DNA from: an uncultured Acidimicrobiaceae bacterium
GTDB taxonomy: Bacteria > Actinomycetota > Acidimicrobiia > Acidimicrobiales > RAAP-2
Direction of reading: 5' to 3'
Assembly (NCBI GenBank): GCA_963782415.1
Contig: CAWAJT010000008.1
Span: forward strand, 67,105 to 131,104
Length of the DNA: 64,000 nt
Each line of letters opens with the position of its first letter. Position 1 is the stretch's first letter. Of the stretch, positions 20,880-46,218 are shown in pieces. The notes below the pieces were generated by a model that worked only from the letters and a program-made list of their open reading frames with translations, made no database searches and had not been told where the DNA came from. The position numbers and the translations under genes were made by a program.

Positions 20880-20908
20880 CCGAAGAGGGTAGCGAGGGTT
20901 GTCGGGCC

Positions 20909-20945
20909 CTAGCCGATCGGCTAGGTTGAGTAGTCGATCGGCTAG
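20909..20945. promoter_or_regulatory. two adjacent TetR-operator-like palindromes in the tetR / 21016 divergent region
   Basis: Perfect 16-bp palindrome CTAGCCGATCGGCTAG at 20909-20924 and a near-copy TAGTCGATCGGCTAG at 20931-20945. Confidence 0.5.
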
Positions 20946-21015
20946 TCACCTGCGGCTATCCCCTCAGGACGTCGCGATCCAGCCCACGGGCCGATCCGCA
21001 CAGAGGAGGATCACG

Positions 21016-22143
21016 TTGCCCGAACCCACGACAGACGAGCAGCTCGAAGAGTTCCTCGAGATCCGCAAGCCCGGCGCCCACCTGGAGGACGGGGTCGTGG
21101 CCGACGAGTTCGTGCTGATGCTCGGGGTCGATCTCGAGAACTACCCGAAGTTCGCGGTGGTCGACGACGCCATCACGTACCCCAAGGCGGCGCTCGACAT
21201 CCGCCAGCAGCTGGACGTCGATTCAGGGGCGGATCTCGCCGACTACAGCGGCCCGTATCGGGCCGATCTGCGCCTCACCGACTTCTCGCGAGAGGCTCTG
21301 GCCACCAGACTTGTGCCGTGGAGCGAGCGGTACATGCAACTCTGCGTCGACGGGTGGGCCGACGAGGTCGCGAAACGCTACGGCGCCGACATCATGGCGG
21401 AGATCGAGTGGGCCGCCTGGACCGAGCAGATCGCCCCCGAGCTGGCGCGCATGCGCAACGAATTCCTGCCTGACGACGTCGTCTACGAGGACCCGAATCA
21501 GCGCGTGCGCCAAGAGGACCGCGGCTCCACGCGTGTCGTGTACACCGGTCTGTTCTCACCGCGACCGGACCTGCGCCAGCGGAGCAAGGAAGAGCTTGTC
21601 ACATGGTTCCTCGGCAGCCACGAGTACCTGCTCCAGTGCATTGAGGGTTGGGCGGCGCAGATCGTGGTTCGCTACGGGCTCGACGAGATGTTCGACATGC
21701 AGTACGCCCTCTGGGGCGACACGGTCCTGCCAGGGGTGAAGAAGCTCAAGGCCGAGATGCTCGGCATTACGGGGAACACGGTGGCGGACTGGATGAAGGA
21801 CCTCCAGCTCGATGCCACGGCCCTGCCGGGCAAGGCCTTCGACCTGACCTTCGAGATGCCCGAACCCGATGTCGGCATCATGACGTTCAATCGCTGCGTC
21901 GCCGTCGATCAGTGGGAGACCATGGGTCGGCCCGACATCCTCGAGAAGAACTGCCATTCCACGTGTCCGAAGTCGATGATCGTGACGACGAAGATGTACA
22001 ACCCGAACATGAAGGTCGACATTCTGGCGATTCCACCTCGCCGCGACCCCGGGGACGTGTGCTGCAAGTGGAAGTTCAGCATGCGCACCGAGGAAGACCC
22101 CGAGTACGTGCCGGTGGAGATCTCGAAGAAACCGCCGCGCTGA
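21016..22143 (+). CDS. hypothetical protein with an internal ~45-aa duplication and a Cys-rich C-terminus, divergently paired with tetR
   Basis: TTG 21016 after GAGGAGGA. Repeat pair CVDGWADEVAKRYGADIMAEIEWAAW / CIEGWAAQIVVRYGLDEMFDMQYALW. C-terminal CHSTCP...DVCCKWKF. No family recognised from sequence alone. Confidence 0.5.
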   Translation: MPEPTTDEQLEEFLEIRKPGAHLEDGVVADEFVLMLGVDLENYPKFAVVDDAITYPKAALDIRQQLDVDSGADLADYSGPYRADLRLTDFSREALATRLVPWSERYMQLCVDGWADEVAKRYGADIMAEIEWAAWTEQIAPELARMRNEFLPDDVVYEDPNQRVRQEDRGSTRVVYTGLFSPRPDLRQRSKEELVTWFLGSHEYLLQCIEGWAAQIVVRYGLDEMFDMQYALWGDTVLPGVKKLKAEMLGITGNTVADWMKDLQLDATALPGKAFDLTFEMPEPDVGIMTFNRCVAVDQWETMGRPDILEKNCHSTCPKSMIVTTKMYNPNMKVDILAIPPRRDPGDVCCKWKFSMRTEEDPEYVPVEISKKPPR

Positions 22144-24257: not shown

Positions 24258-25638
24258 TCAGCCCTGGGGTTTGATCACCGAGCCGGTGGCGTATTTCGTG
24301 GCGTATCCCTGCGCGTTGAGTGTGGTGCCGATGACCGATCCTGAGTTCGCCACGACGTACTTCGGCGAGCAGTCGAACGTGCCCAGCTTCTTCGGGTAGT
24401 ACTGCACCCACTTGGTGTTCTTGAGCTTCATGAGGATCCCGCAGGGGGCGGGCCGGTTCTTGGCCGGGTCGGACGGCGCGTTGAGCCCGCCGCCGGTCCA
24501 GCTCGTCACCTTGGAGAGGTGGTTGATCATGCACTGACGGGTGAGCGTGGAGCCACAAGCCTTGGCCTCGGTGGCCCACAGGAGAAACGACGACGCCGCC
24601 TGCTCACCCAGCGATGACGTCAACCCCCCCGACTTCTTGACCACGGAGAGGTACTGGGCGACGGCTGGCACGACCTTGGCCGCCTCCAGGGGCTCCATGC
24701 CGATGCGGACATAGACGTTGTTACCCAGCCCGCTGGTGTTCCACTTGGCGAAGCCTGCCGTGTACTCGGCGGCGTCGAGCAGCCAGATCGGGTTGTAGCC
24801 GATCTGATTCGCCGCCTGCAGCGCGCCGTAGAGCGTGGGACCCGGGGTGGCGTCGTCGAAGACGATCTTGGCCCCGCAGCTCTGCAGCTTCTGCACGAAC
24901 GGCGTGTAGCTGGCCTCGCCGTTGTAGTTGACGTTGACCGCGCAGCCGCTCCACTTCCAGCCGGCCTCGCCGTACGCCTGCACGGCCTTGGCCATCGACG
25001 ATTCCTGAGTCGAGAGGGTGGAGTCGTACTGGCCCACGTGCTGCGTCTTGGAACCGAAGAGCTTCTCGCCCTGGTAGGCAATTGAGACGGGGCTGGCGTT
25101 CGAAGGATTGGGCGCGGCCTGGTACATCTCGTAGGCATCGGCCACCTCGGCGGACACCGTGAAGCCCGGGACGGCGGCCAGGTTGCAACCCAAGCGGGTC
25201 TGCTCCGCCAGCCCGTCAAGAGCGAATCCTTCGCCGACCAACATGAAATCCGTCTTGCAGGCCTGGGTCATGACCGAGCCGACGTTGGTCACCGCGGCGT
25301 CGTAGTAGTCGCCCACGATCTTGCGCCCGTTGATGCCACCCTGCCGCGTCGCACCAGGCGATCATCGCCTTGACGGCGTCGCCCATCTCCTGGTCGAGTC
25401 CCGGGCTGCCGGCGAAGCCCCGGTCGTCGCCATAGGCGATGTTGATGGTGGAGTTGGTGATGCCATGATCGGTGGCGCCGGTGGCATGTCCCTTCCCGCA
25501 CGGAGACGGCAACGTGCCGAACGTCGAGGGCGGCGACGACGCACCGGTCACCCCCGAGCTGAGCGCCACTCCCGACGCCGTGAGGGCGGTCAGGAGCAGT
25601 GCTGCTCCCACGGCCCGCATTCCCGTGACTCGTGTCAT
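24258..25638 (-). CDS. ABC transporter substrate-binding protein, LivK family (orphan); 1-nt frameshift near 25338
   Basis: Signal peptide MTRVTGMRAVGAALLLTALTASG plus the N-terminal domain lie in frame 25216..25878; the rest (INGRKIVGDYYD...) lies in frame 24258..25316. Removing one base from gcagggTggcatc gives AGGINGRKIV. Confidence 0.65.
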
Positions 25639-25892: not shown

Positions 25893-27200
25893 ATGCGCGC
25901 CCTGGCGGATCGCGCCATGACGGGCTTGGCCCGGCTCCTGGTCCGGACCTTCTTCCGAAGCATCGAGCTCGACGGCGGCGAGCGACTTCCGGCGTCGGGA
26001 CCGGTGATCCTGGTGGCCAATCACACGAACGGGTTAGTAGACGGGCTCCTCCTCATGGCGACGCTGCGTCGCTACCCGCGCTTCTTCGGCAAGTCCACGC
26101 TCTTCGGGATTCCGCCGCTCTGGCCATTTCTGAAGCTCGGCGGTGTCATTCCCGTGTACCGGACCGCCGACGCCGTTCCGGGCGATCACAATGTGTCGGC
26201 GTTCGCGACGAGCCACCGCCTGTTGCACGAGGGCGCCATGGTGGCCGTGTTTCCCGAAGGGGTCAGCCATGACGAGCCGTCGCTGCAGCCGCTCAAGACC
26301 GGGGCAGCCCGCATCGCACTCGACGCGGCGAACGACGGCGCGGCGGCGGTGACCGTTGCCGTGGGACTGGTCTATGACGCCAAGACACGGTTCCGGTCGC
26401 GCGCGCTCGTCCGCGTCGGTGACCCGGTGCGAGTGGACCGCTGGTCCGGTCGCGAGGCGGACGACGAGCGAGCGGTGGTGCGCGCCCTGACCGAGGATCT
26501 GGCGGCCCGGCTGTCGCGCGTCGCTCCGACGTTCGCCTCGTTGGCGGAGGCGGCGGAGCTCTCGAGCATCGCCGCGGTGCTGGTGCGCACGTCCGGCGCC
26601 GGACTGGCCGTCGATGTCGCCATGGGTGTCCAGGTCGAGGTCGCAGCCCGCCTGGCGGTACTGGAGCAGGCCTTCCCGGGATCTCTGCAACAGCTCCGCG
26701 CCGCCGCCGCGACTTACACACGCGGCCTCGACCTGCTCGGCGTGAACGACGCCCAGCTCATGACCGGACTGCGCTGCCGGCGCCTGACCATCGCGTGGGC
26801 CGCGGCCAGAGTCGTGGCGGCTGCCCCCTTGGCGGTCGTCGGCGTGCTGGTGCACCTCGTGCCGTTCCAGTTCGTCAAGGCACTGGCGAAGCGACCGACC
26901 AACGAGAGCATCAAGGCGACGGTCAAGTTGCTCGGCTGCTTCGTGCTGTTCGCCCTGACCTATACGGTGGTGGGCGTGATCGTCGGGCGCGTCTTCGGTC
27001 CGTGGGCCGGGCTCCTGGCTGGCGTAGGCGCACCGATCTGCGGCCTGCTGGCGGTGCGCGCCCTCGAGCGCGTGCAGCGGATCGGTGGCTTGGTCGAAGG
27101 CCTTCGGCTGGTCAGGACGCAGCGGGACATGCTCGAGTCGGTGCTCGCACAGCGCGCGGCTGTCGTCCACGAGGCGCGCGTGCTCCTTTGCCTTACGTGA
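25893..27200 (+). CDS. 1-acyl-sn-glycerol-3-phosphate acyltransferase (PlsC-like) with a C-terminal membrane extension
   Basis: HX4D motif (VANHTNGLVDGLLL) and FPEG motif; C-terminal TM helices. Confidence 0.75.
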   Translation: MRALADRAMTGLARLLVRTFFRSIELDGGERLPASGPVILVANHTNGLVDGLLLMATLRRYPRFFGKSTLFGIPPLWPFLKLGGVIPVYRTADAVPGDHNVSAFATSHRLLHEGAMVAVFPEGVSHDEPSLQPLKTGAARIALDAANDGAAAVTVAVGLVYDAKTRFRSRALVRVGDPVRVDRWSGREADDERAVVRALTEDLAARLSRVAPTFASLAEAAELSSIAAVLVRTSGAGLAVDVAMGVQVEVAARLAVLEQAFPGSLQQLRAAAATYTRGLDLLGVNDAQLMTGLRCRRLTIAWAAARVVAAAPLAVVGVLVHLVPFQFVKALAKRPTNESIKATVKLLGCFVLFALTYTVVGVIVGRVFGPWAGLLAGVGAPICGLLAVRALERVQRIGGLVEGLRLVRTQRDMLESVLAQRAAVVHEARVLLCLT

Positions 27201-27970
27201 GGCCCGACACCATCACTTACGGCACCGACCGCTCCCAGCGGGCGGAGGTGTGGCGCCCCGGAGGCGCCGACGCGCCACGGCCCGTGGTCGTGCTGATCCA
27301 CGGGGGGTTCTGGCGGCAGCGCTACGGCAAGCGCCTGATGCACCCGCTGGCCCGGGCCATGACCGCACGCGGCTGGATCGCCTACAACATTGAATACCGG
27401 CGCGTCGGAACCTCCGGTCGGGGCGGCTGGCCGCAGACGTTCGAGGACGTGTCGGACGCCATCGACGCGCTGGCCGACGTGGCCGGCGTGGACCGCCGAC
27501 GGGTGGCGACCTGTGGCCACTCGGCGGGTGGCCACCTGGCGCTGTGGGCGGCCGCGTCCCGCTCGACCGGCAGTCCCCGACGGAAAGGACCGGCGATCGC
27601 CGTATGCGCCGCCGTCTCGTTGGCGGGGGTCGTCGACCTCGACGCGGCGGCGCGCCAGGCCGTCGGGGCGGGGGCGGTCGACGCGCTCATGGGCGGCAGC
27701 CCCGACGAGGTGCCGGACCGTTACCGACTAGGTTCTCCGGCCGCGCTGGTGCCGATGGGGAAACCGCAGATCCTGCTGCATGGGCTCGAGGACGAGTCCG
27801 TGCCCCCCTCGCTCAGTGAGCACTACGTCGAGGCGGCCCGGGCGCTGGGCGACCCTGCCGTCTACGTGCCGTTCGCCGGCGTGTCCCACATGGAGGTGAT
27901 CCGCGCCAAGGGCGCCGTCTTCGCCGAGCTCGCCGGCCGCTTGGAGGCGGTGTTCCGGCCGCCCCGCTGA
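27197..27970 (+). CDS. alpha/beta-hydrolase (esterase/lipase, S9/HSL-like)
   Basis: GHSAGG nucleophile elbow and HGGF oxyanion motif (VVLIHGGFW). GTG overlaps the plsC stop (GTGA). Confidence 0.75.
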   Translation: MRPDTITYGTDRSQRAEVWRPGGADAPRPVVVLIHGGFWRQRYGKRLMHPLARAMTARGWIAYNIEYRRVGTSGRGGWPQTFEDVSDAIDALADVAGVDRRRVATCGHSAGGHLALWAAASRSTGSPRRKGPAIAVCAAVSLAGVVDLDAAARQAVGAGAVDALMGGSPDEVPDRYRLGSPAALVPMGKPQILLHGLEDESVPPSLSEHYVEAARALGDPAVYVPFAGVSHMEVIRAKGAVFAELAGRLEAVFRPPR

Positions 27971-28149
27971 GCGACCCGCCTGGCCGCCGGGCCGTGAGCG
28001 TTGTCCGCCGAGTTCTGAGGCGCGTCGTCCCAGTTCAGTGCCAATATCTGTCGGCACCGTCGGTCGGTTCCGGGCGCACTGGCGCTGATCAAGTAGCCCC
28101 CCCGAAATGTCGATACAGAGAGCTGAGCTCATCGAACAAAGAGGGGTAC

Positions 28150-30582
28150 ATGGCGGAGGCTTCTCAGGATGCCGTGGTGACACCTGCCCAAGGCGCCATG
28201 CCCGAACCGCCGGTTCGAGCGGCGTCGACGCGGCACCAGCGGATGGATCCGACCAAGCTGGCCTATCTGATCGGCCCGGTGGCGTTCGCCATCGTCCTCG
28301 TCCTCATGCATTTTGGCTACGCGGCACGCGTCTCGCCGTGGGCCTGGCTCGGTATCTTCGTCGCCATCGCCGCTGTCAACGCGTGCGTGGACCACCTCTA
28401 CGCGCTCCGCCCGAGCGAGGCCACCTTCACCCTCCGCCTCGTCAGCCAGGTCGCCGCCGTCACCGTCGCCATCTATCTGACGGGGTGGGGCCCCGTGCTG
28501 TGGGCGGCGTACGCGTTCGTCGCCTTGGAGAACCTGGCCCGGGTGGGGTCGCGCGTCTGGCGTCCGATCGTGCTCTGCAGCTTGCTCGGGATGGCGATCG
28601 GGCAATTTTGCCTCTCGCAGGGCTGGTTCCCGTCGGAGTTGTCGTTCGGTGAGGCCGACTCCCTGGCGGTGATGGGCGCCTTCGTCCTCTTTTTCGTCAT
28701 CCGAATGGCCGGCGCCATCCTGGAGCAGAACGAAACGGCCATGGCGCAGAAAGAAGAGGCGGAGACGACGTTGCGCCTCAGCGAGGACCGGTTCCGCTCG
28801 CTGATTCAGAACTCGTCCGACGTGACGATGATCCTCGGCGAGGAAGGTGTCTTCCGCTACGTGTCCCCGGCGATCACCGACCTGTTGCAGTACGAGCCGG
28901 CCGAGCTGGTGGGTCGGGCGTCGACGGACTTCGTTCACCCAGAGGACCTCGACACGGTCAGGAGCGTGCTGGGCGGCGAGTTCCAAACCGGTGGCGGGAC
29001 GGCGATGCTCGGGTTCCGCCTGCTCCGCAAGGACGGCACGAGCCGCGACGTGGAGGCGGTCGTCTCCAACCAGATGGACCGCCCCTCGGTGGCCGGATAC
29101 GTCGCCAACATCCGCGACGTCACTGAGCGCAAGAAGTTCGAGGCGCTGCTGGCGCACCGCGCCCTGCACGATCCTTTGACGGGATTGGCCAACCGCCAGC
29201 TCATCCTCGACCGGGCGGAGCAGATGCTGGTGCGGGCGCGACGGTCCGGTACGCCCATGGCGGTGCTGTTCATCGACCTCGACAACTTCAAGGATTCCAA
29301 TGACTCGCTCGGTCACGGGGCGGGCGACCAGTTGCTGCAGATGGTGGCCGGTCGCCTCCTCGGCATTCTGCGCTCGGGCGACACGGTCGGGCGCCTCGGT
29401 GGCGACGAGTTCGTCATTCTGGCCGAAGGGGTCTCCTTCGCCCACGGACCCGAGACGATCGCGGAGCGGGTCCACGAGGTGCTCAGGCCGGCCTTCCACA
29501 TTCAGGGAATCGATGACATGTCGATCGCGGTGACGGCGAGCATCGGGATCGCGGTCGGGGATCGCCCCTCGGCCGAGGACCTGCTGCGCGACGCCGACAT
29601 CGCCCTGTACCGAGCCAAGGGGGGCGGCCGCGACCGGTCCGTCCTCTTCGAGCACTCCATGCAGTCGGCGGCCAAGGAGCGGCTCGTCCTCAAGTCCGAT
29701 TTGGAGTCGGCGCTCGAGCACGACGAGTTCACGCTTCTCTTCCACCCGATCTTCGACCTGGAGGAAATCCAGATCCATGGCGCCGAGGCACTGATCCGGT
29801 GGCAGCATCCGTCCCGGGGCGAGATCGCCCCCGACGCCTTCATCCCGGTACTCGAAGAGCGCGGACTCATCGTCGACGTCGGCCGGTGGGTGCTCAACGA
29901 GTCCTGCCGGGAGGCTGCCACCTGGCACCGCATGGGGCACCGGGTGAGCGTCTCGGTCAACGTGTCGATGCGTCAGCTGGACTCGGACCAGCTCGTCGAC
30001 GACGTCCGCAACGCGCTGAACGTCCACGGTCTGCCCTCCGACATGCTCATCCTGGAGGTCACCGAGACGACACTGATGCGGGACTCGGTGGCCACTGTGG
30101 CCCGGCTGAACAGCCTCAAGGCACTGGGCGTCAAGGTCGCCATCGACGACTTCGGGACGGGGTACTCGTCGCTCGCCTACCTGCGCCAGTTCCCGGTCGA
30201 CGTGCTCAAGATCGACCGGTCCTTCGTGGCCGACATGTGCCGCTCGGCCGATGCCGCCGCGCTGATCCACACGCTCATTGAGCTGGGTCGCACCCTCGGA
30301 CTCGTGACCCTGGCCGAGGGCATCGAAACTCACGAGCAGCTCGAAGGGCTCCGACGGGAGCACTGCGATCATGGCCAAGGTTTTCTCTTCTCGGGCCCGG
30401 TCGATGCAGCGGAGATCACCGCGCTGCTCGAGACCACCCGCGTCGCACAATCGCTGCCGGCGTTGGGCCCGGGCCTGTCCGGTGCCGCCGCCTCGCACTC
30501 GACGCTCGAGGCCCGCCCGCCCGTGCCGTCCGTCAGCGAGGCCGTGCCGTCCGTCAGCCAGACCGCCAGCCCGCACGCCTAA
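28150..30582 (+). CDS. membrane sensor c-di-GMP turnover protein: 5-6 TM + PAS + GGDEF + EAL
   Basis: ATG 28150 after AGAGGGG. Intact GGDEF (RLGGDEF) and EAL (EALIRW, DDFGTGYSSL) motifs; PAS segment with a PAC-like region. Confidence 0.85.
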   Translation: MAEASQDAVVTPAQGAMPEPPVRAASTRHQRMDPTKLAYLIGPVAFAIVLVLMHFGYAARVSPWAWLGIFVAIAAVNACVDHLYALRPSEATFTLRLVSQVAAVTVAIYLTGWGPVLWAAYAFVALENLARVGSRVWRPIVLCSLLGMAIGQFCLSQGWFPSELSFGEADSLAVMGAFVLFFVIRMAGAILEQNETAMAQKEEAETTLRLSEDRFRSLIQNSSDVTMILGEEGVFRYVSPAITDLLQYEPAELVGRASTDFVHPEDLDTVRSVLGGEFQTGGGTAMLGFRLLRKDGTSRDVEAVVSNQMDRPSVAGYVANIRDVTERKKFEALLAHRALHDPLTGLANRQLILDRAEQMLVRARRSGTPMAVLFIDLDNFKDSNDSLGHGAGDQLLQMVAGRLLGILRSGDTVGRLGGDEFVILAEGVSFAHGPETIAERVHEVLRPAFHIQGIDDMSIAVTASIGIAVGDRPSAEDLLRDADIALYRAKGGGRDRSVLFEHSMQSAAKERLVLKSDLESALEHDEFTLLFHPIFDLEEIQIHGAEALIRWQHPSRGEIAPDAFIPVLEERGLIVDVGRWVLNESCREAATWHRMGHRVSVSVNVSMRQLDSDQLVDDVRNALNVHGLPSDMLILEVTETTLMRDSVATVARLNSLKALGVKVAIDDFGTGYSSLAYLRQFPVDVLKIDRSFVADMCRSADAAALIHTLIELGRTLGLVTLAEGIETHEQLEGLRREHCDHGQGFLFSGPVDAAEITALLETTRVAQSLPALGPGLSGAAASHSTLEARPPVPSVSEAVPSVSQTASPHA

Positions 30583-30585
30583 GGT

Positions 30586-30605
30586 CTCGCGCAGACGGCC
30601 GCGAG
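30586..30605 (+). terminator. hairpin immediately after the GGDEF-EAL stop codon
   Basis: CTCGCG-cagacggc-CGCGAG stem-loop 4 nt downstream of the TAA stop. Confidence 0.3.
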
Positions 30606-30667
30606 CCGCCGGCGCAGAGGCCGGCGCAGCGGCGGTGGGGGGACTGGTGCCGGAACCGGCGCCCGGC

Positions 30668-31474
30668 TTATGTCCCGAGGTGGAGGGCGACGGCAGCGTC
30701 GGGTTCGAGCACCCGGAAGTTGAAACTCTCCTCGATGTAGAGGCGCACGGCGTCGGCGTCGTGATCGAGGTAGCCGATGGAGAGATCCTGCCCACACTCC
30801 ATCTGGAAGTCGCCGCCGCGCAGGCTCAGCACGACACCGCCCTCGAGCCCGGGCGCCCACACCAGGGGGCCACCGAGGATCTTACGGAGGTGGTCCAACA
30901 AGAGGTGCCCGCCGAACTCCGCGGTCTCGACGATCCGGGTGTACATGTCCGGGCAGATGGCGAGGCCGTAGGGGCCGTCGATGCCGGCCTGACGAAGGAG
31001 ATTGACGCCGCGAGCCACGCCGTCGGGTGCCGTGGCGATGTCGCCGCCGAGTGTGATGGGTTCGTGCGACGTGCTGTCGGTGATGCCGCGCTGGCCGGCC
31101 GCCTCGTAACCGTGGAAGACCATCACGTTCTCGCCCAGAGCGATCTGGCGCACGGCCTCGTCGAGCTCGGCCAGGTCCGGGTTGTTCGTCCCGCGGTCGA
31201 CGTCGTCGAGCTCGACCCGCGAGACCTTGAACTCGGTGCGCAGTTCCACCAGGGGGAGGACCACCCGCTGGGCGGCGGCCACGCCCTCGGAAGGGCCGGT
31301 GATGGACGTGATGCGGCCGAGGTCGGTGGCCGAGTGCGTCCAGCCGTGCGGACCGCCGAAGTCCACCAGCTTGCGGGCGGCGAGATAGGTCGGGAGCCGG
31401 GACTTGGCCTCGTCGTCGATGGCGTCCCAGCCGGCATCCGAAATCGGGGCCAGTTCGCGTTGGAGGTGGTTCAT
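30668..31474 (-). CDS. family 1 encapsulin nanocompartment shell protein (Linocin_M18 / HK97-fold)
   Basis: 268 aa; end-to-end similarity to the T. maritima/M. xanthus encapsulin pattern (MNHLQRELAPISDAGWDAIDDEA...; IDGPYGLAI; RGGDFQMECGQDLSIGYLDHDADAVRLYIEESFNFRV). ATG 31474 after an AAGGGAA RBS, overlapping the upstream stop (TGATG). Confidence 0.9.
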   Translation of the reverse strand: MNHLQRELAPISDAGWDAIDDEAKSRLPTYLAARKLVDFGGPHGWTHSATDLGRITSITGPSEGVAAAQRVVLPLVELRTEFKVSRVELDDVDRGTNNPDLAELDEAVRQIALGENVMVFHGYEAAGQRGITDSTSHEPITLGGDIATAPDGVARGVNLLRQAGIDGPYGLAICPDMYTRIVETAEFGGHLLLDHLRKILGGPLVWAPGLEGGVVLSLRGGDFQMECGQDLSIGYLDHDADAVRLYIEESFNFRVLEPDAAVALHLGT

Positions 31475-31851
31475 CAGGCTGTTCCCTTCAGACTCCCGAT
31501 GCCGAGCGACCCCGAGTCGCCGGCGCTCGATGTGGATCCGCCCTCGGGCTCCTGGCCGCCGTCGCCGACCTCGGTGATGGGGCCGGACGAGAACAAGAAC
31601 TTGCGCAGCTGGGCGTCGAGGGCGGCGTCGCGCCGGCGTAGCCACTCGAGGGCCATGGCGGCGTGCTCTTTCTCGTCGTCTCGGTTGTAGGCGAGGACGG
31701 CGGCCAGGCTCTCGTCCGAGGTCGCCTTCACGCGCTGGTCGTACCAGTCGATCGCCTCGAGCTCCTCGCCCAGCGACGTCATGGCGCGGTGGTAGTCGAT
31801 GCTGGCTTCGTCGAGCAGATTGAGCGGCTCGTGCAATCCCTCGCTGGCCAA
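31474..31851 (-). CDS. encapsulated ferritin-like protein (EncFtn) cargo with C-terminal encapsulin targeting peptide
   Basis: EncFtn core (EELEAIDWYDQRVKATSDESLAAVLAYNRDDEKEHAAMALEWLRRRD) and C-terminal targeting peptide ...DSGSLGIGSLKGTA. TTG 31851 after a strong GAGGAGG RBS; the longer GTG 31947 extension lacks an RBS. Confidence 0.85.
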   Translation of the reverse strand: MASEGLHEPLNLLDEASIDYHRAMTSLGEELEAIDWYDQRVKATSDESLAAVLAYNRDDEKEHAAMALEWLRRRDAALDAQLRKFLFSSGPITEVGDGGQEPEGGSTSSAGDSGSLGIGSLKGTA

Positions 31852-31863
31852 GGTTGCCTCCTC

Positions 31864-31906
31864 GCGTGTAGTTCCGTGTGTTCCGGCGTGTGCTTCGGTC
31901 GTGTGG
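31864..31906 (-). promoter_or_regulatory. four phased direct repeats CACACG (period 12-13 nt) immediately upstream of the EncFtn RBS
   Basis: Minus-strand read CACACGaccgaagCACACGccggaaCACACGgaactaCACGCG, directly 5' of GAGGAGG-TTG. Confidence 0.35.
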
Positions 31907-32133
31907 TTCTCGACAACCGGGGATGGAACGCCCCGAGCGACGCCCACAGTGAAGCACCTGCGGGTCCCCCGAGTCTACGGGACGTCCCCCGGCCCCGGTC
32001 GTGGGCCCTCCGGTGACGGTGCCGGTGTGTCGCCGGTCGCACTCTGGGAGGTGCGCGCCGGGTGCCGGCCGCGCAGGCTCCGGGGGTGGATCGGCGCCGT
32101 GGCGGCGTGCTCGGGTCGCTCCGGGTGTAACCG

Positions 32134-33334
32134 GCCCGTCCGCGCGCCGTAGCGGGCCGCAAGCGGTGACGCGCTCGACGCCGTGCAAAAGCACGCTCAA
32201 CGCGACCGTCAAGGTGACCGTCCCCAGCACGACGGTGGACTCGGCCGGTGCCAGCGTGTCGACCGCGATGAGCCCGAACACCACCGACGCCAACCCGCGC
32301 GGCCCGAACCAGCCGACGAAGCCGACCGTGGCCCGGTCGAGGCCGCTCCCGAGGAGCGCCACCGCGACGGGCACCATCCGCACGACGGTCAAGGCGAGCA
32401 GTGCGAACACGACGGTGCGCCACCCCACGTCGGCCAGCCCGGGTCCGAGCATGACGGCGCCGAACACGAACCAAACCAGGAGGGTGAGGAGCGTGCCGCC
32501 CTCCTCGGCGAAGCGCAGGTCGGCCACGTCCTCGCTCCGGTCGAGGGCGCCGAAGGCCATGCCGGCCACGAAGGCGGCGATGAAGCCGTTGGTGCCGGCG
32601 GCGACCGAGCCCGAATAGGCGAGGAGCGCAAGGGCCAGGACGGCGATCGGACGGAAGCCGGCTGCGCTCCATCCGTGGCGGGCCGCCAGCGCCAGGAGAG
32701 TGGCGCCGACCACACCCACGCCGATCCCCAGGCTGGCCCCCCCGACGAGGTCGACGACGGCGGCGGCGGGCCGGGCGCCGTGCACGGCCTCGGCACTGAC
32801 CGCTCCTGCGAGGAAGAGGTTCACGAAGGGCGTGACGATGCCGTCGTTGAGACCGCTCTCCACGTTCAAGAGGCGGCGCACCGCCGGCGGGATGCGCGTG
32901 TCGCCCATAACGGTGGCGCCCAGCGCAGCGTCGGTCGGCGCCACGATCGCGCCGATGGCGGCGGCCACCCACAGGCCGCTGCCGCCAAAGAGCAGCGCGG
33001 CCACACCGGCACCGGCACCGATGGTGAGCGGGAGCCCGATGCCCAAGAGGCGGGCGGGGAGTGCGGCATCGGCGCGCAGGGCCGCGAGGTGGACGCGGGA
33101 GGCGTCGGCGAACAACACGAGGGCGAGCGTCACCTCGGCCAACGTGAGGATCGTCGACGAGTGCAGGCTGACGTGGATCACCGCCGTCGGGCCGTGCGTC
33201 GTCGCCAGACCGAGGAGGACGAAAGCGATCGGGCCCGACACGTCCGAGCGCTCCAGCCGTGCCGAGACGAGACCCCATGCGAGGACGCAGGCCGAAAGCA
33301 CGACCAGCGAGGTGACGTTGGGCTCGTGCGTCAC
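32134..33334 (-). CDS. NhaP-type (CPA1) Na+/H+ antiporter; 3' end unresolved
   Basis: About 400 aa with 11-13 TM helices and CPA1 motifs (VRRLLNVESGLNDGIVTPFVNLFLAG). The frame has no stop and runs through ~220 aa of R/P-rich junk into the encapsulin frame, so a frameshift or an alternative end near 32140 (frame-2 stop at 31975) is likely. Confidence 0.65.
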
Positions 33335-33590
33335 GAGTGGGATCGGGCCCGAGGCGGGGCCGGCGGGGGTTCCATAGTGGCTGCCGCCAATCTTTCCTGG
33401 TCAGAGGAGAAGGATGCGCCATGGTGGCGGCCCGGGCCGCGGGCCTCGGCGGGCGGTCCGGCGCGGAGGCGAGGTGGCCTCGCCGGAAGGCGCAACCCGA
33501 GCGGCGCCATCCCTGCATTGTTTTTGGCGCGGGACTAAACATGGCAGGTCGCGTACTCGCCGACCACAGACGACAAGGAGAGCCGTTCCG

Positions 33591-33992
33591 ATGCTTGCGA
33601 CCAACTACCCGATCCTCGATGCCTTTTTGACGATGCTGTACTTCTTCCTCTTCATCATCTGGATCTGGTTGCTGATCATGGTCTTCATGGACGTCTTCCG
33701 CAGCCACGACATCGGCGGCTTGGCCAAGGCGCTGTGGGTGATCTTCATCATCGTCCTGCCGTTCCTCGGCGTCTTCGTCTACCTCATCGCCCGGGGAGGA
33801 AAGATGCACGAGCGGGCGGCGGCGCAGGCGGCGCAACAGCAAAAGGCCTTTGACCAGTACGTCAAGCAGGCGGCGGGCACGCCAGGCGCCGACTCGGCCT
33901 CCCAGCTCTCGAAGCTGGCCGACCTCAAATCCCAGGGCGTGCTCACCGACGCCGAGTTCGAGGCCCAGAAGGCCAAGATCCTGGCCAGTTAG
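33591..33992 (+). CDS. small membrane protein with PLDc_N (cardiolipin-synthase N-terminal-like) domain + C-terminal SHOCT domain
   Basis: Two TM helices with WIWLLIMVFMDVFRS...LWVIFIIVLPFLGVFVYLIARGG, and a SHOCT motif LADLKSQGVLTDAEFEAQKAKIL. ATG 33591. Confidence 0.75.
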   Translation: MLATNYPILDAFLTMLYFFLFIIWIWLLIMVFMDVFRSHDIGGLAKALWVIFIIVLPFLGVFVYLIARGGKMHERAAAQAAQQQKAFDQYVKQAAGTPGADSASQLSKLADLKSQGVLTDAEFEAQKAKILAS

Positions 33993-42191: not shown

Positions 42192-42599
42192 ATGCTTGCT
42201 GCGACGTATCAATACCCGATCCTGGATTTCTTCTTGACGATGCTGTACTTCTTCCTCTTCGTCATCTGGATCTGGTTGCTGATCACGGTGTTCATCGACA
42301 TCTTCCGCAGCCACGACCTGGGCGGCTGGGCCAAGGCGCTCTGGGTGATCTTCATCATCATCCTGCCCTTCCTCGGCGTCTTCGTGTACCTCATCGCCCG
42401 TGGCGGCAAGATGCACGAGCGGGCGGCGCAGCAGGCGGCACAGCAGCAGAAGGCCTTCGACGACTACGTCAAGCAGGCGGCCGGCAGCGCATCGGACACC
42501 ACGGCCGACCAGCTCTCGAGGCTGGCCGACCTCAAGTCCCAGGGCGTGCTGACCGATGCCGAGTTCGAGGCGCAGAAATCCAAGATCCTGGCCAGCTGA
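42192..42599 (+). CDS. PLDc_N + SHOCT small membrane protein (paralog of 33591..33992)
   Basis: About 75% aa and 88-90% nt identity to the 33591 gene; AAGGAG RBS. Confidence 0.8.
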   Translation: MLAATYQYPILDFFLTMLYFFLFVIWIWLLITVFIDIFRSHDLGGWAKALWVIFIIILPFLGVFVYLIARGGKMHERAAQQAAQQQKAFDDYVKQAAGSASDTTADQLSRLADLKSQGVLTDAEFEAQKSKILAS

Positions 42600-42664: not shown

Positions 42665-43093
42665 ATGACCATCGGACCAGTCAGCTACACGGTCATTGCC
42701 TTCCCGGGCAACCGCTTCAACGGCAACATCGCGCCGGAGGTGGCGAAGCTGGTGGCGAACGGCACTGTCCGGATCCTCGACCTGGTCTTCGTGGCCAAGG
42801 ACGAGCAGGGTGAAACCATCAGCCTCGAGTTCGATCAGATGGACGAACTGACAGCGTTCGGCGACATCGAAGGCGAGGTCGGTGGGCTCGTGAACATGGA
42901 GGACCTGGACCATGTGGCGGCCAACTTGCCCGAGGGCAATTCCGCTCTGGTGATCCTGTGGGAGGACCTGTGGGCGGTGCCGCTCGTCGAGGCGATGCGC
43001 GAGTCCGGTGGCGTGTTGATCGACAGCGCGCGGATCCCGAACGACCTGATTGAGACGGCACTCGACGACCTGGCTCAGGCCCTCCAGAGTTGA
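42665..43093 (+). CDS. conserved hypothetical protein (DUF6325/DUF1269-like, SHOCT-neighbourhood family)
   Basis: MTIGPVSYTVIAFPGNRFNGNIAPEVAKLVANGTVRILDLVFV...; GAGGAG RBS. Confidence 0.5.
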   Translation: MTIGPVSYTVIAFPGNRFNGNIAPEVAKLVANGTVRILDLVFVAKDEQGETISLEFDQMDELTAFGDIEGEVGGLVNMEDLDHVAANLPEGNSALVILWEDLWAVPLVEAMRESGGVLIDSARIPNDLIETALDDLAQALQS

Positions 43094-43127
43094 GTACAAC
43101 GAGAGCGCAGAGAAAAGGAGCACGATC

Positions 43128-43427
43128 ATGCCCATGATGCGACGACGTCCAGTGATGCGAACGGTGGGGAGGACGGCGGTGATCGCCGGCACCGCCAGCG
43201 TCGTGGCCGGCGGGGTCAACCGGCATCAACAGCAGAAGTACGCGCAGCAAGACGCAGCGTCGCAACAGCAGGCCGCGCCGCCGCCCGCCCCGGCCGGCGT
43301 CGAGGCGCCGAGTTCGGACGATCTCATCAGCAAGCTGAAGGAGCTCGCCAACCTCAAGGACCAGGGCATCCTGACGCAGGCCGAATTCGACGACCAGAAG
43401 GCCAAGATCCTGGCCGAGATGTCCTGA
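43128..43427 (+). CDS. SHOCT-domain protein with one TM helix
   Basis: AAAGGAG RBS. TM helix RTAVIAGTASVVAGGV, a Gln/Ala-rich linker, and the SHOCT motif LANLKDQGILTQAEFDDQKAKILAEM. Confidence 0.7.
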   Translation: MPMMRRRPVMRTVGRTAVIAGTASVVAGGVNRHQQQKYAQQDAASQQQAAPPPAPAGVEAPSSDDLISKLKELANLKDQGILTQAEFDDQKAKILAEMS

Positions 43428-43599: not shown

Positions 43600-46218
43600 G
43601 TGGCCGAACGATGCGGCGAAATGTGCTGCCTCTCGCCGCGTTGGCTCGCACCCCGGTTGCGCGTGACTGAAGTATCCGGGCCCGAGGCCACGTCCCGTCC
43701 GCGACACGCGAAGGTCGAACCGGATACCCCTGCGCCAGACCCCGCGAGTTCGTCGCGTGGTCGTTGGTGGTGGGTCCCGGGCGCCATCACGGTCATCACG
43801 ATTGCCAGTGTCATTGCGGTCACGCTGTCGCAGCTCCATCCGGGCATGCTCCTGACCGACACGACGACCACCGGGGGCGATACCGGCGCGCACATCGCAA
43901 TGCCCAAGTTCCTCGAGACATTGATCAGCCACGGTCACCTCACGGGCTGGGACCCCGGCTGGTATGACGGCTTCCCCCTCTACACCTTCTACTTCACGAT
44001 TCCCGATCTCTTCATCGCCATTGGCGGATGGATCATCCCCTATGGCGTCGCCTTCAAAATGGGAACGATCCTTGGCTCGGTGCTGCTCCCCATCTGCGCC
44101 TGGGCTTGTGGCCGGTTCTTCCGATTGCGGGCTCCGCTTCCGACCATCCTGGCGGCCGCCACCCTCCCGTTCCTGTTCGATTACACGTTCACCATTTACG
44201 GCGGGAACCTGTTCTCCACGTTGGCTGGCGAGTACGCGTATTCATTCAGCCTCTCGCTGGCCGTGCTCTTCCTCGGACTCTTCGCCTGCGCAATCAGGGA
44301 GCATCGATACCGCGGATGGACGGCCATCGTGCTCGCCGTCTGCGTGCTGTCGCACATCGTCCCCGGCATGTACGCCCTTGGCGGCGCTGTCATCCTCACG
44401 CTCGTCGAGTTGCTCCCGGCCCGGTGGGGGATCACCGACTCGGGACTGCACGTGTGGCGCGGCGACGCCGCACGGGAGCCCGTGCCCCGGCTGCGCACGC
44501 TGTGGTGGGCCGGTTCCACGGTCGCGATCGGGCTGCTGCTCTCCGGCTGGTGGCTGGCGCCCTTCGGGTTGGAGCACGCGTATTCGTCGTCGATGGGCTA
44601 CACCAACGTCGAGGGCTGGGCGCAGTACTTCCGGGAGGCCGACGCTTGGGCTCTGGTGCTGGCGGGAATCGGCGCCATCACCGCTGTCGTGGTGCGCAGT
44701 CGGTTCGGCATCACCGTCACACTGCTCGGCATCGCATCGGCGGTCGCCACCGCCGTCGATCCGCAGGGGAGCCTCTACAACGTCCGCCTCCTTCCTCTGT
44801 GGTACATCTCCGTGTACTTCATGGCGGCCTGGGGGTTCGGGGCGGTCTGCATCGTCGTGGCGAAAGCCTGGCGCCGGGCCCAGGACAGGCGGTGGGAGGC
44901 CTCCGTCGCGGCGGATCCAGGTCCCTTGGCGCAGGAGTGGCCGCACCCGTTCTCGGAGGAGCCCCGTACAGCCGACCTCGCAGCCGACGACCTCGCAGCC
45001 GACCCCGGCAATGTGATGACGGCGAGGCGCGCGCCGACCCGGCGCTGGAGCCCGGCGGCGGTGAGTGGCGCGATCCTCGGCCTGCTGGCTGCCATGGTTG
45101 TCGTCGTCCCGCCGTTCATCGTCCCTGCGTCAATGCTGCCGGTCACCATCGGGCCTAACGAGGTGACGAACTGGTCGAACTTCAACTACGAGGGTTACGA
45201 GGGGCAGGCGTCCTATCCGGAGTTCAAGACACTCATGCAGACGATGGACTCGGTGGGCAAGCGCTACGGCTGCGGTCGCGCCATGTGGGAATACAGCGCC
45301 AGTGAGAACCGCTTTGGCACCCCCGAGGCGCTGATGCTCTTGCCCTATGAGACCAACGGGTGCGTCGCTTCGATGGAGGGCCTTCTCTTCGAGTCGTCCG
45401 CCACCACCCCGTACCACTTCCTCAACCAGGCTGAGTTGTCAGCGGGCCCGTCAGAGCCCGAGGTCGGGCTCCCCTACGGGTCCCTCGATGTCACGCTCGG
45501 AGTGCAGCATCTGCAGCTTCTCGGCGTGAAGTACTTCATGGCGGAGACGCCGCAGGTCGAGCAGGAGGCCAACGCGGATCCGTCGCTCCAGCTCGTCGCC
45601 AAGACGGGTCCTTGGACGTACAACTACGACGGGACCGACTCGAACACCACGTGGAACATCTACCTCATCAAGGATTCACCACTGGTGACCCCTCTCGTCA
45701 ACGATCCTGTCGTCGTGTCCGGGGTGCAGCCCGACCCGGCGAGCTGGCTCGGGAATGCGACGAAGGAGGGTCCGGCCCTGAGCTGGTACGGCGATCCGGC
45801 CAAGTGGAACGTCGAGCTCGCGCAGGACGGACCGCCGGATTGGCCCCGCACCTCTATCGACCGTCTTGCGCCGACGGTCAAACGCGCCGGGACGACCCAG
45901 GTCAGCGGGGTGACGCACACCGACTCGTCCATCAGCTTCCACGTGTCGAAGGTGGGGACGCCGGTGCTGGTCAAGGTCTCGTACTTCCCCAACTGGCAGG
46001 CCGACGGAGCGAACGGGCCGTGGCGTGTCACCCCGAACCTCATGGTCGTTGTCCCGACCAGCCACGACGTGACGCTGACCTACGGGTCTTCGAGTGCGGA
46101 CTACCTCGGGTTGTTCGCCACGCTGCTCGGTGTCGGCGGCCTCGTGTGGCTGTGCGTCGTGCCGGCGTTCCGCCGGCGCTTTCGGGACGCCCCCCGGAGC
46201 GGGCCCGACCCGCGCTGA
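43600..46218 (+). CDS. large polytopic membrane protein with a C-terminal extracytoplasmic domain (GT-C-like glycosyltransferase fold; YfhO/DUF2298/PTPS-related-like)
   Basis: About 12 N-terminal TM helices, then a ~350-aa soluble domain and a C-terminal TM anchor. The start is uncertain (43600, or a later ATG/GTG). Confidence 0.5.
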   Translation: MAERCGEMCCLSPRWLAPRLRVTEVSGPEATSRPRHAKVEPDTPAPDPASSSRGRWWWVPGAITVITIASVIAVTLSQLHPGMLLTDTTTTGGDTGAHIAMPKFLETLISHGHLTGWDPGWYDGFPLYTFYFTIPDLFIAIGGWIIPYGVAFKMGTILGSVLLPICAWACGRFFRLRAPLPTILAAATLPFLFDYTFTIYGGNLFSTLAGEYAYSFSLSLAVLFLGLFACAIREHRYRGWTAIVLAVCVLSHIVPGMYALGGAVILTLVELLPARWGITDSGLHVWRGDAAREPVPRLRTLWWAGSTVAIGLLLSGWWLAPFGLEHAYSSSMGYTNVEGWAQYFREADAWALVLAGIGAITAVVVRSRFGITVTLLGIASAVATAVDPQGSLYNVRLLPLWYISVYFMAAWGFGAVCIVVAKAWRRAQDRRWEASVAADPGPLAQEWPHPFSEEPRTADLAADDLAADPGNVMTARRAPTRRWSPAAVSGAILGLLAAMVVVVPPFIVPASMLPVTIGPNEVTNWSNFNYEGYEGQASYPEFKTLMQTMDSVGKRYGCGRAMWEYSASENRFGTPEALMLLPYETNGCVASMEGLLFESSATTPYHFLNQAELSAGPSEPEVGLPYGSLDVTLGVQHLQLLGVKYFMAETPQVEQEANADPSLQLVAKTGPWTYNYDGTDSNTTWNIYLIKDSPLVTPLVNDPVVVSGVQPDPASWLGNATKEGPALSWYGDPAKWNVELAQDGPPDWPRTSIDRLAPTVKRAGTTQVSGVTHTDSSISFHVSKVGTPVLVKVSYFPNWQADGANGPWRVTPNLMVVVPTSHDVTLTYGSSSADYLGLFATLLGVGGLVWLCVVPAFRRRFRDAPRSGPDPR

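Follow-up and report, generated by a model that had tools for sequence, protein, structure and literature searches.

Flp cargos constitute the second-largest cargo group of the family 1 encapsulins, catalogued in 23 bacterial phyla, and both crystal and cryo-EM structures of Flp/EncFtn cargos are already available. In EncFtn from R. rubrum, crystallography and mutagenesis have defined a di-iron centre formed by Glu32, Glu62, His65 and Tyr39, and a second metal site at Glu31 and Glu34 (PMC5012862). Metal-dependent decamer assembly and ferroxidase activity are known for the proteins from R. rubrum and H. ochraceum (PMC5012862, PMC8791618), and the number of EncFtn decamers packed within the shell is four in H. 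ochraceum and five in T. maritima (PMC8791618). EncFtn is by itself unable to store mineral, and the shell is required.

The locus described here lies on the minus strand of a 64-kb stretch of DNA (the window, which is the whole stretch that was analysed), and is very probably a functional family 1 encapsulin operon, made up of two genes and belonging to an Acidimicrobiaceae-like actinobacterium; nothing was found that contradicts a reading as an encapsulin/EncFtn operon. As for the R. rubrum Enc/EncFtn system (cargo Rru_A0973; PDB code 5DA5, and the 33bf/9rzu-type complexes), the gene pair is ordered cargo first, then shell. The two EncFtn proteins are 59.8% identical over the ferritin domain (92 aa), with identical ferroxidase and entry-site residues and the same GSLGIGSLKG tail, and the shell deposited in the same PDB entries as the R. 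rubrum cargo matches the window shell at E 1.5e-69. Unlike R. rubrum, which belongs to the Alphaproteobacteria, the host of the window is a member of the Actinomycetota. The linker sequence also differs, the cargo start codon in the window is TTG, and the shell protein is shorter, 268 aa compared with 280 aa.

The Enc:EncFtn system of H. ochraceum (PDB codes 7OE2/7ODW and 5N5F), for which a four-decamer packaging model exists, is likewise similar, with the shell aligning end to end (E 2e-63) and EncFtn matching at E 1.2e-31 including the targeting tail. Here, however, sequence identity is lower, and the window proteins are known from sequence alone. The T. maritima encapsulin/Flp system (PDB code 3DKT) also combines a family 1 shell (E 1.4e-52) with a decameric ferritin-like cargo that is packaged by means of a C-terminal peptide, but it is more distant, and its shell binds flavin and contains five decamers.

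Among the closest solved shells are two that load dye-decolorising peroxidase (DyP), i.e., the T=1 shells of K. pneumoniae (PDB code 8U50; E 1.2e-72) and M. tuberculosis (Cfp29, PDB code 7P1T; E approximately 3e-64). These belong to the same size class as the window shell, but the K. pneumoniae and M. tuberculosis cargo is the peroxidase and not EncFtn. M. xanthus EncA, with its EncB, EncC and EncD, and 6NJ8 are iron-mineralising family 1 encapsulins, and EncC matches the window cargo weakly (E 5.7e-6). In contrast to the window system, those shells are larger and their cargo families different; the EncA shells of M. xanthus are described in the literature as T=3.

The gene pair and its products

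The features of the locus, all on the minus strand and numbered by window position, are as follows:

30668..31474, minus strand: family 1 encapsulin shell gene (268 aa plus stop; ATG start at 31474..31472)
31474..31851, minus strand: EncFtn/Flp encapsulated ferritin cargo gene (125 aa plus stop; TTG start at 31851..31849)
31483..31512, minus strand: coding region of the C-terminal targeting peptide GSLGIGSLKG (in a six-frame search of all 64 kb, no other motif of this kind lies close to a stop codon)
31857..31863, minus strand: ribosome-binding site GAGGAGG, read from the sequence, 5 nt 5' of the cargo TTG
31918..31935, minus strand: GC-rich hairpin or palindrome CGGGG-N8-CCCCG in what is presumably the 5' leader, likewise placed in the closest relatives
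31948..31977, minus strand: putative promoter, proposed from conservation, with TAGACT (-35), an 18-nt spacer and TGcTTCACT (extended -10)

The translation of 31474..30668 runs from MNHLQRELAP to ALHLGT before the stop, and that of 31851..31474 gives the cargo protein (TTG)ASEGLHEPL...GSLGIGSLKGTA, also ending in a stop. At the junction, gccTGATGaac, the TGA stop of the cargo gene and the ATG start of the shell gene have base 31474 in common. No frame error is present in either ORF, and third-position G+C content (GC3) is 0.90 for the shell and 0.91 for EncFtn. An earlier note on this DNA had proposed a 268-aa shell ORF containing three quoted peptide strings, preceded by a 125-aa cargo gene with a quoted ferroxidase core and the GSLGIGSLKG ending, a TGATG overlap between the two, and a TTG start with a GAGGAGG ribosome-binding site. 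All of these elements were recovered at the positions listed above, with the overlap amounting to one shared base, and the frame error that the note had named as grounds for doubt was absent from both genes. The note's assignments to the two protein families, and its description of the tail as a canonical targeting peptide, also hold, as detailed below. Each ground for refutation that the note listed was checked directly or by a more stringent test, none spoke against the assignments, and the profile and structure matches lie far beyond chance.

The shell protein scores 292.9 bits against NF041155, the NCBIfam equivalog for the family 1 encapsulin nanocompartment shell protein, which is about three times the cutoff of 100 bits and covers the whole model (positions 1–261 of 261). 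The match to Pfam Linocin_M18 (PF04454) has an E value of 2.5e-81. Residues 1–264 align with the solved K. pneumoniae shell 8U50 with 46.6% identity over 264 positions and one single-residue gap, and because of this level of identity to a solved shell, an HK97 fold is strongly implied for the window protein. An AlphaFold2 model computed from a shallow alignment of 28 sequences (73–93% identity) reached a mean pLDDT of 37 and a pTM of 0.28, too low to be of use, and the fold and T number are accordingly deduced from homology to solved shells. Full-length alignments were obtained with the solved T=1 shells 8u50, 7odw, 3dkt and Cfp29, while E values no better than 1e-5 to 1e-7 were reached with the approximately 280-aa DyP-encapsulating 6nj8, the P. 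furiosus particle and M. xanthus EncA. The K. pneumoniae shell is an HK97-fold, T=1 particle with 60 subunits and a diameter of 24 nm (PMC10960027), and since this is the closest solved homologue, a T=1 particle of 60 subunits and about 24 nm would be the best assumption for the window shell as well.

As for the cargo, the match to PF22277 (EncFtn-like) is well above the cutoff of 27 bits (123.5 bits, E 3e-36), that to TIGR04535 (encapsulin-associated ferritin-like) is marginal, at 126.1 bits only 1 bit over a cutoff of 125, and R. rubrum EncFtn is matched at E 8.7e-39 with the tail included. Scores for the EncB-family models NF058679 and NF058678 fall below their cutoffs (76.3 bits with a cutoff of 90, and 25.1 bits with a cutoff of 210, respectively), and the protein was not assigned to that family. 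The ferroxidase residues Glu30, Glu60, His63 and Tyr37 are the counterparts of Glu32, Glu62, His65 and Tyr39 in R. rubrum EncFtn, and Glu29, Glu32 and Trp36 correspond to the entry-site residues Glu31, Glu34 and Trp38. The ferroxidase residues, Glu29 and Glu32 are conserved in 38–40 of 40 homologues, and Trp36 is likewise near-invariant, which disposes of the concern, raised in the earlier note, that the ferroxidase Glu and His residues might be missing on alignment. R. rubrum EncFtn ends in the very same GSLGIGSLKG, and the core of this tail, L-G-I-G-S-L-K, is near-invariant in the same 40 homologues. The shell gene is thereby accompanied by a dedicated, adjacent cargo gene that encodes a C-terminal targeting peptide (GSLGIGSLKGTA), the arrangement expected of family 1. 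A six-frame search of the 64-kb window returned no second cargo with a targeting-peptide-like C-terminus.

Proposed function and putative regulation

By analogy with the characterised homologues, the 268-aa HK97-fold protein would self-assemble into an icosahedral T=1 shell of 60 subunits, about 24 nm across, and the 125-aa EncFtn would form ring-shaped decamers with metal-dependent di-iron ferroxidase centres at the dimer interfaces, built from Glu30, Glu60, His63 and Tyr37. The GSLGIGSLKG peptide at the end of a flexible linker of about 25 residues is predicted to dock into a luminal pocket of the shell protomers, such that a few EncFtn decamers would be packaged during assembly, as are four to five in the solved homologues. 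Fe2+ could then pass through the shell pores and be oxidised by EncFtn, with the ferric mineral retained in the shell, and the likely outcome would be iron storage together with protection from Fenton chemistry. At the level of expression, the 1-nt overlap may couple translation of the cargo and shell genes, and transcription would probably start from the conserved promoter-like block approximately 100 nt upstream of the cargo gene.

The same machinery might alternatively serve chiefly in Fe2+ detoxification and protection from oxidative stress instead of providing a retrievable iron store. We regard this emphasis as possible, if somewhat unlikely. Genes for iron uptake, iron regulation or iron release (ferredoxin, reductase) are absent from the neighbourhood, and neither iron-responsive regulator sites nor other iron genes were detected in the approximately 30 kb scanned around the operon, which would be in line with a detoxifying role. 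However, the analysis covers 64 kb of the genome, too little to judge whether other ferritins or regulators are absent, and Enc:EncFtn complexes mineralise and hold iron in vitro (PMC5012862). Storage and detoxification are, moreover, not mutually exclusive.

Upstream of the cargo gene, a block with the pattern cgT(G/A)GACT-N18-(T/G)GcTT(C/T)ACTGTGG is kept in most of 23 aligned loci, and the flanking sequence otherwise diverges. A strict sigma-70 scan of 30400..33700 gave no match and did not call the promoter-like block, and a terminator scan of the same interval found a single terminator-like site, inside the exchanger gene and at chance level. For the leader hairpin, covariation is weak, with a covariation term of -0.22 kcal/mol and compensatory changes in 2 of 8 pairs, and for this reason we make no claim for a structured RNA at this position. 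A tRNA scan and an Rfam scan at gathering thresholds, both covering the whole window, detected no RNA genes. At 31868..31905 (minus strand), after the leader hairpin and before the ribosome-binding site, about 35 nt rich in CACACG (ccACACGaccgaagCACACGccggaaCACACGgaactaCACG) have no counterpart in any of the 22 aligned relatives.

The gene downstream of the operon, at 27994..30582 on the plus strand, encodes a PAS-GGDEF-EAL protein (c-di-GMP turnover) and is convergent with the shell gene across an 85-nt gap, an arrangement conserved in many Acidimicrobiaceae relatives. The conserved leader of this lineage (promoter-like block, GC-rich hairpin and TTG start, followed by strict overlap with an ATG-started shell gene) allows the speculation that it is a dedicated device that fixes a sub-stoichiometric ratio of cargo to shell, or adds a novel regulatory input, and the PAS-GGDEF-EAL gene might tie the operon to c-di-GMP signalling. 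We consider such a specialised arrangement doubtful.

Conservation, reading frames and surrounding genes

At E ≤ 1e-20 the shell has matches in more than 5,700 database clusters, the closest of them 93% identical, and neither the shell nor either version of the cargo has an exact match in the sequence collection. A genome scan yielded 40 loci, the nearest of which (76–89% identity) are Acidimicrobiaceae/Acidimicrobiales metagenome-assembled genomes (MAGs) from soil, peat and bog projects. Of 43 loci that were fetched, 40 have an EncFtn gene directly upstream of the shell gene. Among 40 tabulated loci, the stop and start codons share 1 or 4 nt in 34, and the genes abut within 5 nt in four more. 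In about 19 close relatives the homologous cargo start codon is TTG, in the rest GTG or ATG, and an AGGAG motif always precedes it. Both genes are under purifying selection, with dN/dS values against the relatives of 0.07–0.12 for the shell and 0.07–0.30 for the cargo.

The earlier note also described the operon as hidden, with the shell buried in an 888-aa ORF and the cargo in a 157-aa ORF, such that automated annotation could easily miss or merge the two genes. The burial is real, since the mechanical ORF list places the shell inside an 888-aa ORF (33334..30668) and the cargo inside a GTG-started ORF of 157 aa (31947..31474). The wider description, however, is overstated. In the three relatives for which gene calls were read, both genes are called separately, with the same boundaries and with products of 122–124 and 267–268 aa. 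Two of the listed relatives bear the NCBI name 'family 1 encapsulin nanocompartment shell protein [Acidimicrobiales bacterium]', and many shell relatives are named 'linocin/CFP29 family protein' by JGI. The operon type is thus neither hidden nor unannotated, although a 322-aa shell cluster indicates that the shell start is occasionally over-extended.

The GTG start of the 157-aa ORF was rejected, because this codon (31947) lies inside the conserved promoter-like block, and because three relatives start at the codon equivalent to the TTG. The comparative data confirm TTG as the true cargo start.

The 888-aa ORF, and with it the concern about merged genes, has a concrete cause that is local to this window. 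Its first 386 codons represent a real Na+/H+ exchanger (PF00999, residues 14–385), and PF04454 is found at residues 621–871. Compared with four related MAGs, the exchanger gene (31975..33334, minus strand) carries a 1-nt insertion at approximately 32176, where the window reads GGCGTCGAGCGC and the relatives GGCGTC-AGTGC. In those four relatives the exchanger continues as LLHG(V/I)SASPLA.RYG (...LLHGVSASPLAARYG...) to a stop of its own, and without the extra base the window exchanger would stop at TAG 31977..31975. As a consequence of the insertion this stop is lost, and the frame stays open until the stop codon of the shell gene, generating an 888-aa ORF that is specific to the window. Off-frame stops are rare because the window has a G+C content of 68%. 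GC3 is 0.92 in the exchanger frame, and drops to 0.47 where the run-on frame crosses EncFtn. The insertion could reflect a real pseudogene or an assembly error. The TAG stop of the repaired exchanger falls inside the -35-like hexamer of the promoter-like block. In three of the relatives (L001–L003), the exchanger gene is absent between EncFtn and the SHOCT gene.

A second disrupted gene lies on the other side of the operon, at 25893..27967 (plus strand), where a homologue of a 695-aa acyltransferase and alpha/beta-hydrolase gene in L001 is split between two frames. The break, at 27027–27118, spans 92 nt where 31 codons are expected, and this corresponds to a 1-nt deletion. Two frameshifts within 6 kb of the operon, and none inside it, suggest either that the assembly has indel errors or that gene decay is under way. 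In a further Acidimicrobiaceae MAG (MFD05841.bin.2.49; L036:5628-7229), the frame encoding EncFtn stays open over 533 codons, and the match to the shell does not begin until residue 138. This assembly has a frame break within its own encapsulin operon, and such indels thus do occur in these MAG assemblies.

If gene erosion had extended to the operon itself, the genes could be decaying or silent, and the insertion in the adjacent exchanger and the deletion found 4 kb away, in the acyltransferase/hydrolase gene, would be its traces. This is very improbable in view of the two intact ORFs, the retained ribosome-binding site, promoter-like block and catalytic residues, and dN/dS values of around 0.1 against the relatives. 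Isolated 1-nt indels also resemble assembly errors, as exemplified by the frame break in MFD05841.bin.2.49.

That the 888-aa ORF might be genuine and encode an exchanger–encapsulin fusion is suggested by the uninterrupted frame from 33334 to 30668 with both PF00999 and PF04454, but the run-on GC3 across EncFtn (0.47) is far from the 0.90–0.92 of the real frames, four relatives lack the base at approximately 32176 and have an exchanger that stops separately, and the shell gene starts at a conserved ATG of its own, which is coupled to the stop codon of EncFtn. The fusion was rejected on these grounds, and we give it almost no credence.

Beyond the operon, the genes on the upstream side are the exchanger (in some relatives only), a divergent PLDc_N/SHOCT membrane protein, an LPG-synthase-like protein, an alpha-L-fucosidase and SfLAP. 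The window encodes three small SHOCT-domain proteins, at 33414..33992, 42192..42599 and 43050..43427 (all plus strand), two of which have an N-terminal PLDc_N membrane domain, and one of the three is conserved in relatives as the divergent gene next to the encapsulin operon. At E ≤ 1e-4, Pfam gave no match for three long ORFs of high GC3, at 43600..46218 (plus strand, 872 aa), 20899..22143 (plus strand, 414 aa) and 24258..25316 (minus strand, 352 aa). When the genes neighbouring the operon were scanned with Pfam, the result was cellular genes only, with no phage morphogenesis genes among them. Encapsulins and phage capsids have the HK97 fold in common and are often confused (PMC8346489), but a prophage HK97-type major capsid protein is excluded as the identity of the 268-aa protein, with negligible residual probability, by the family 1 equivalog score at three times the cutoff over the whole model, the targeting-peptide cargo gene adjoining upstream, the cellular neighbours without terminase, portal or protease genes, and the same chromosomal context retained in many MAGs.

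Place of the locus among family 1 encapsulins

The operon type is well characterised and routinely annotated, and the importance of the locus beyond correct annotation is small. In that respect, a single-base indel in the exchanger gene, within a window of high G+C content, has produced an 888-aa ORF that could mislead annotation based on the longest ORF. With the encapsulin operon read in its own frames, the locus represents one more Flp/EncFtn-type family 1 encapsulin, from the Acidimicrobiia of soil and peat.
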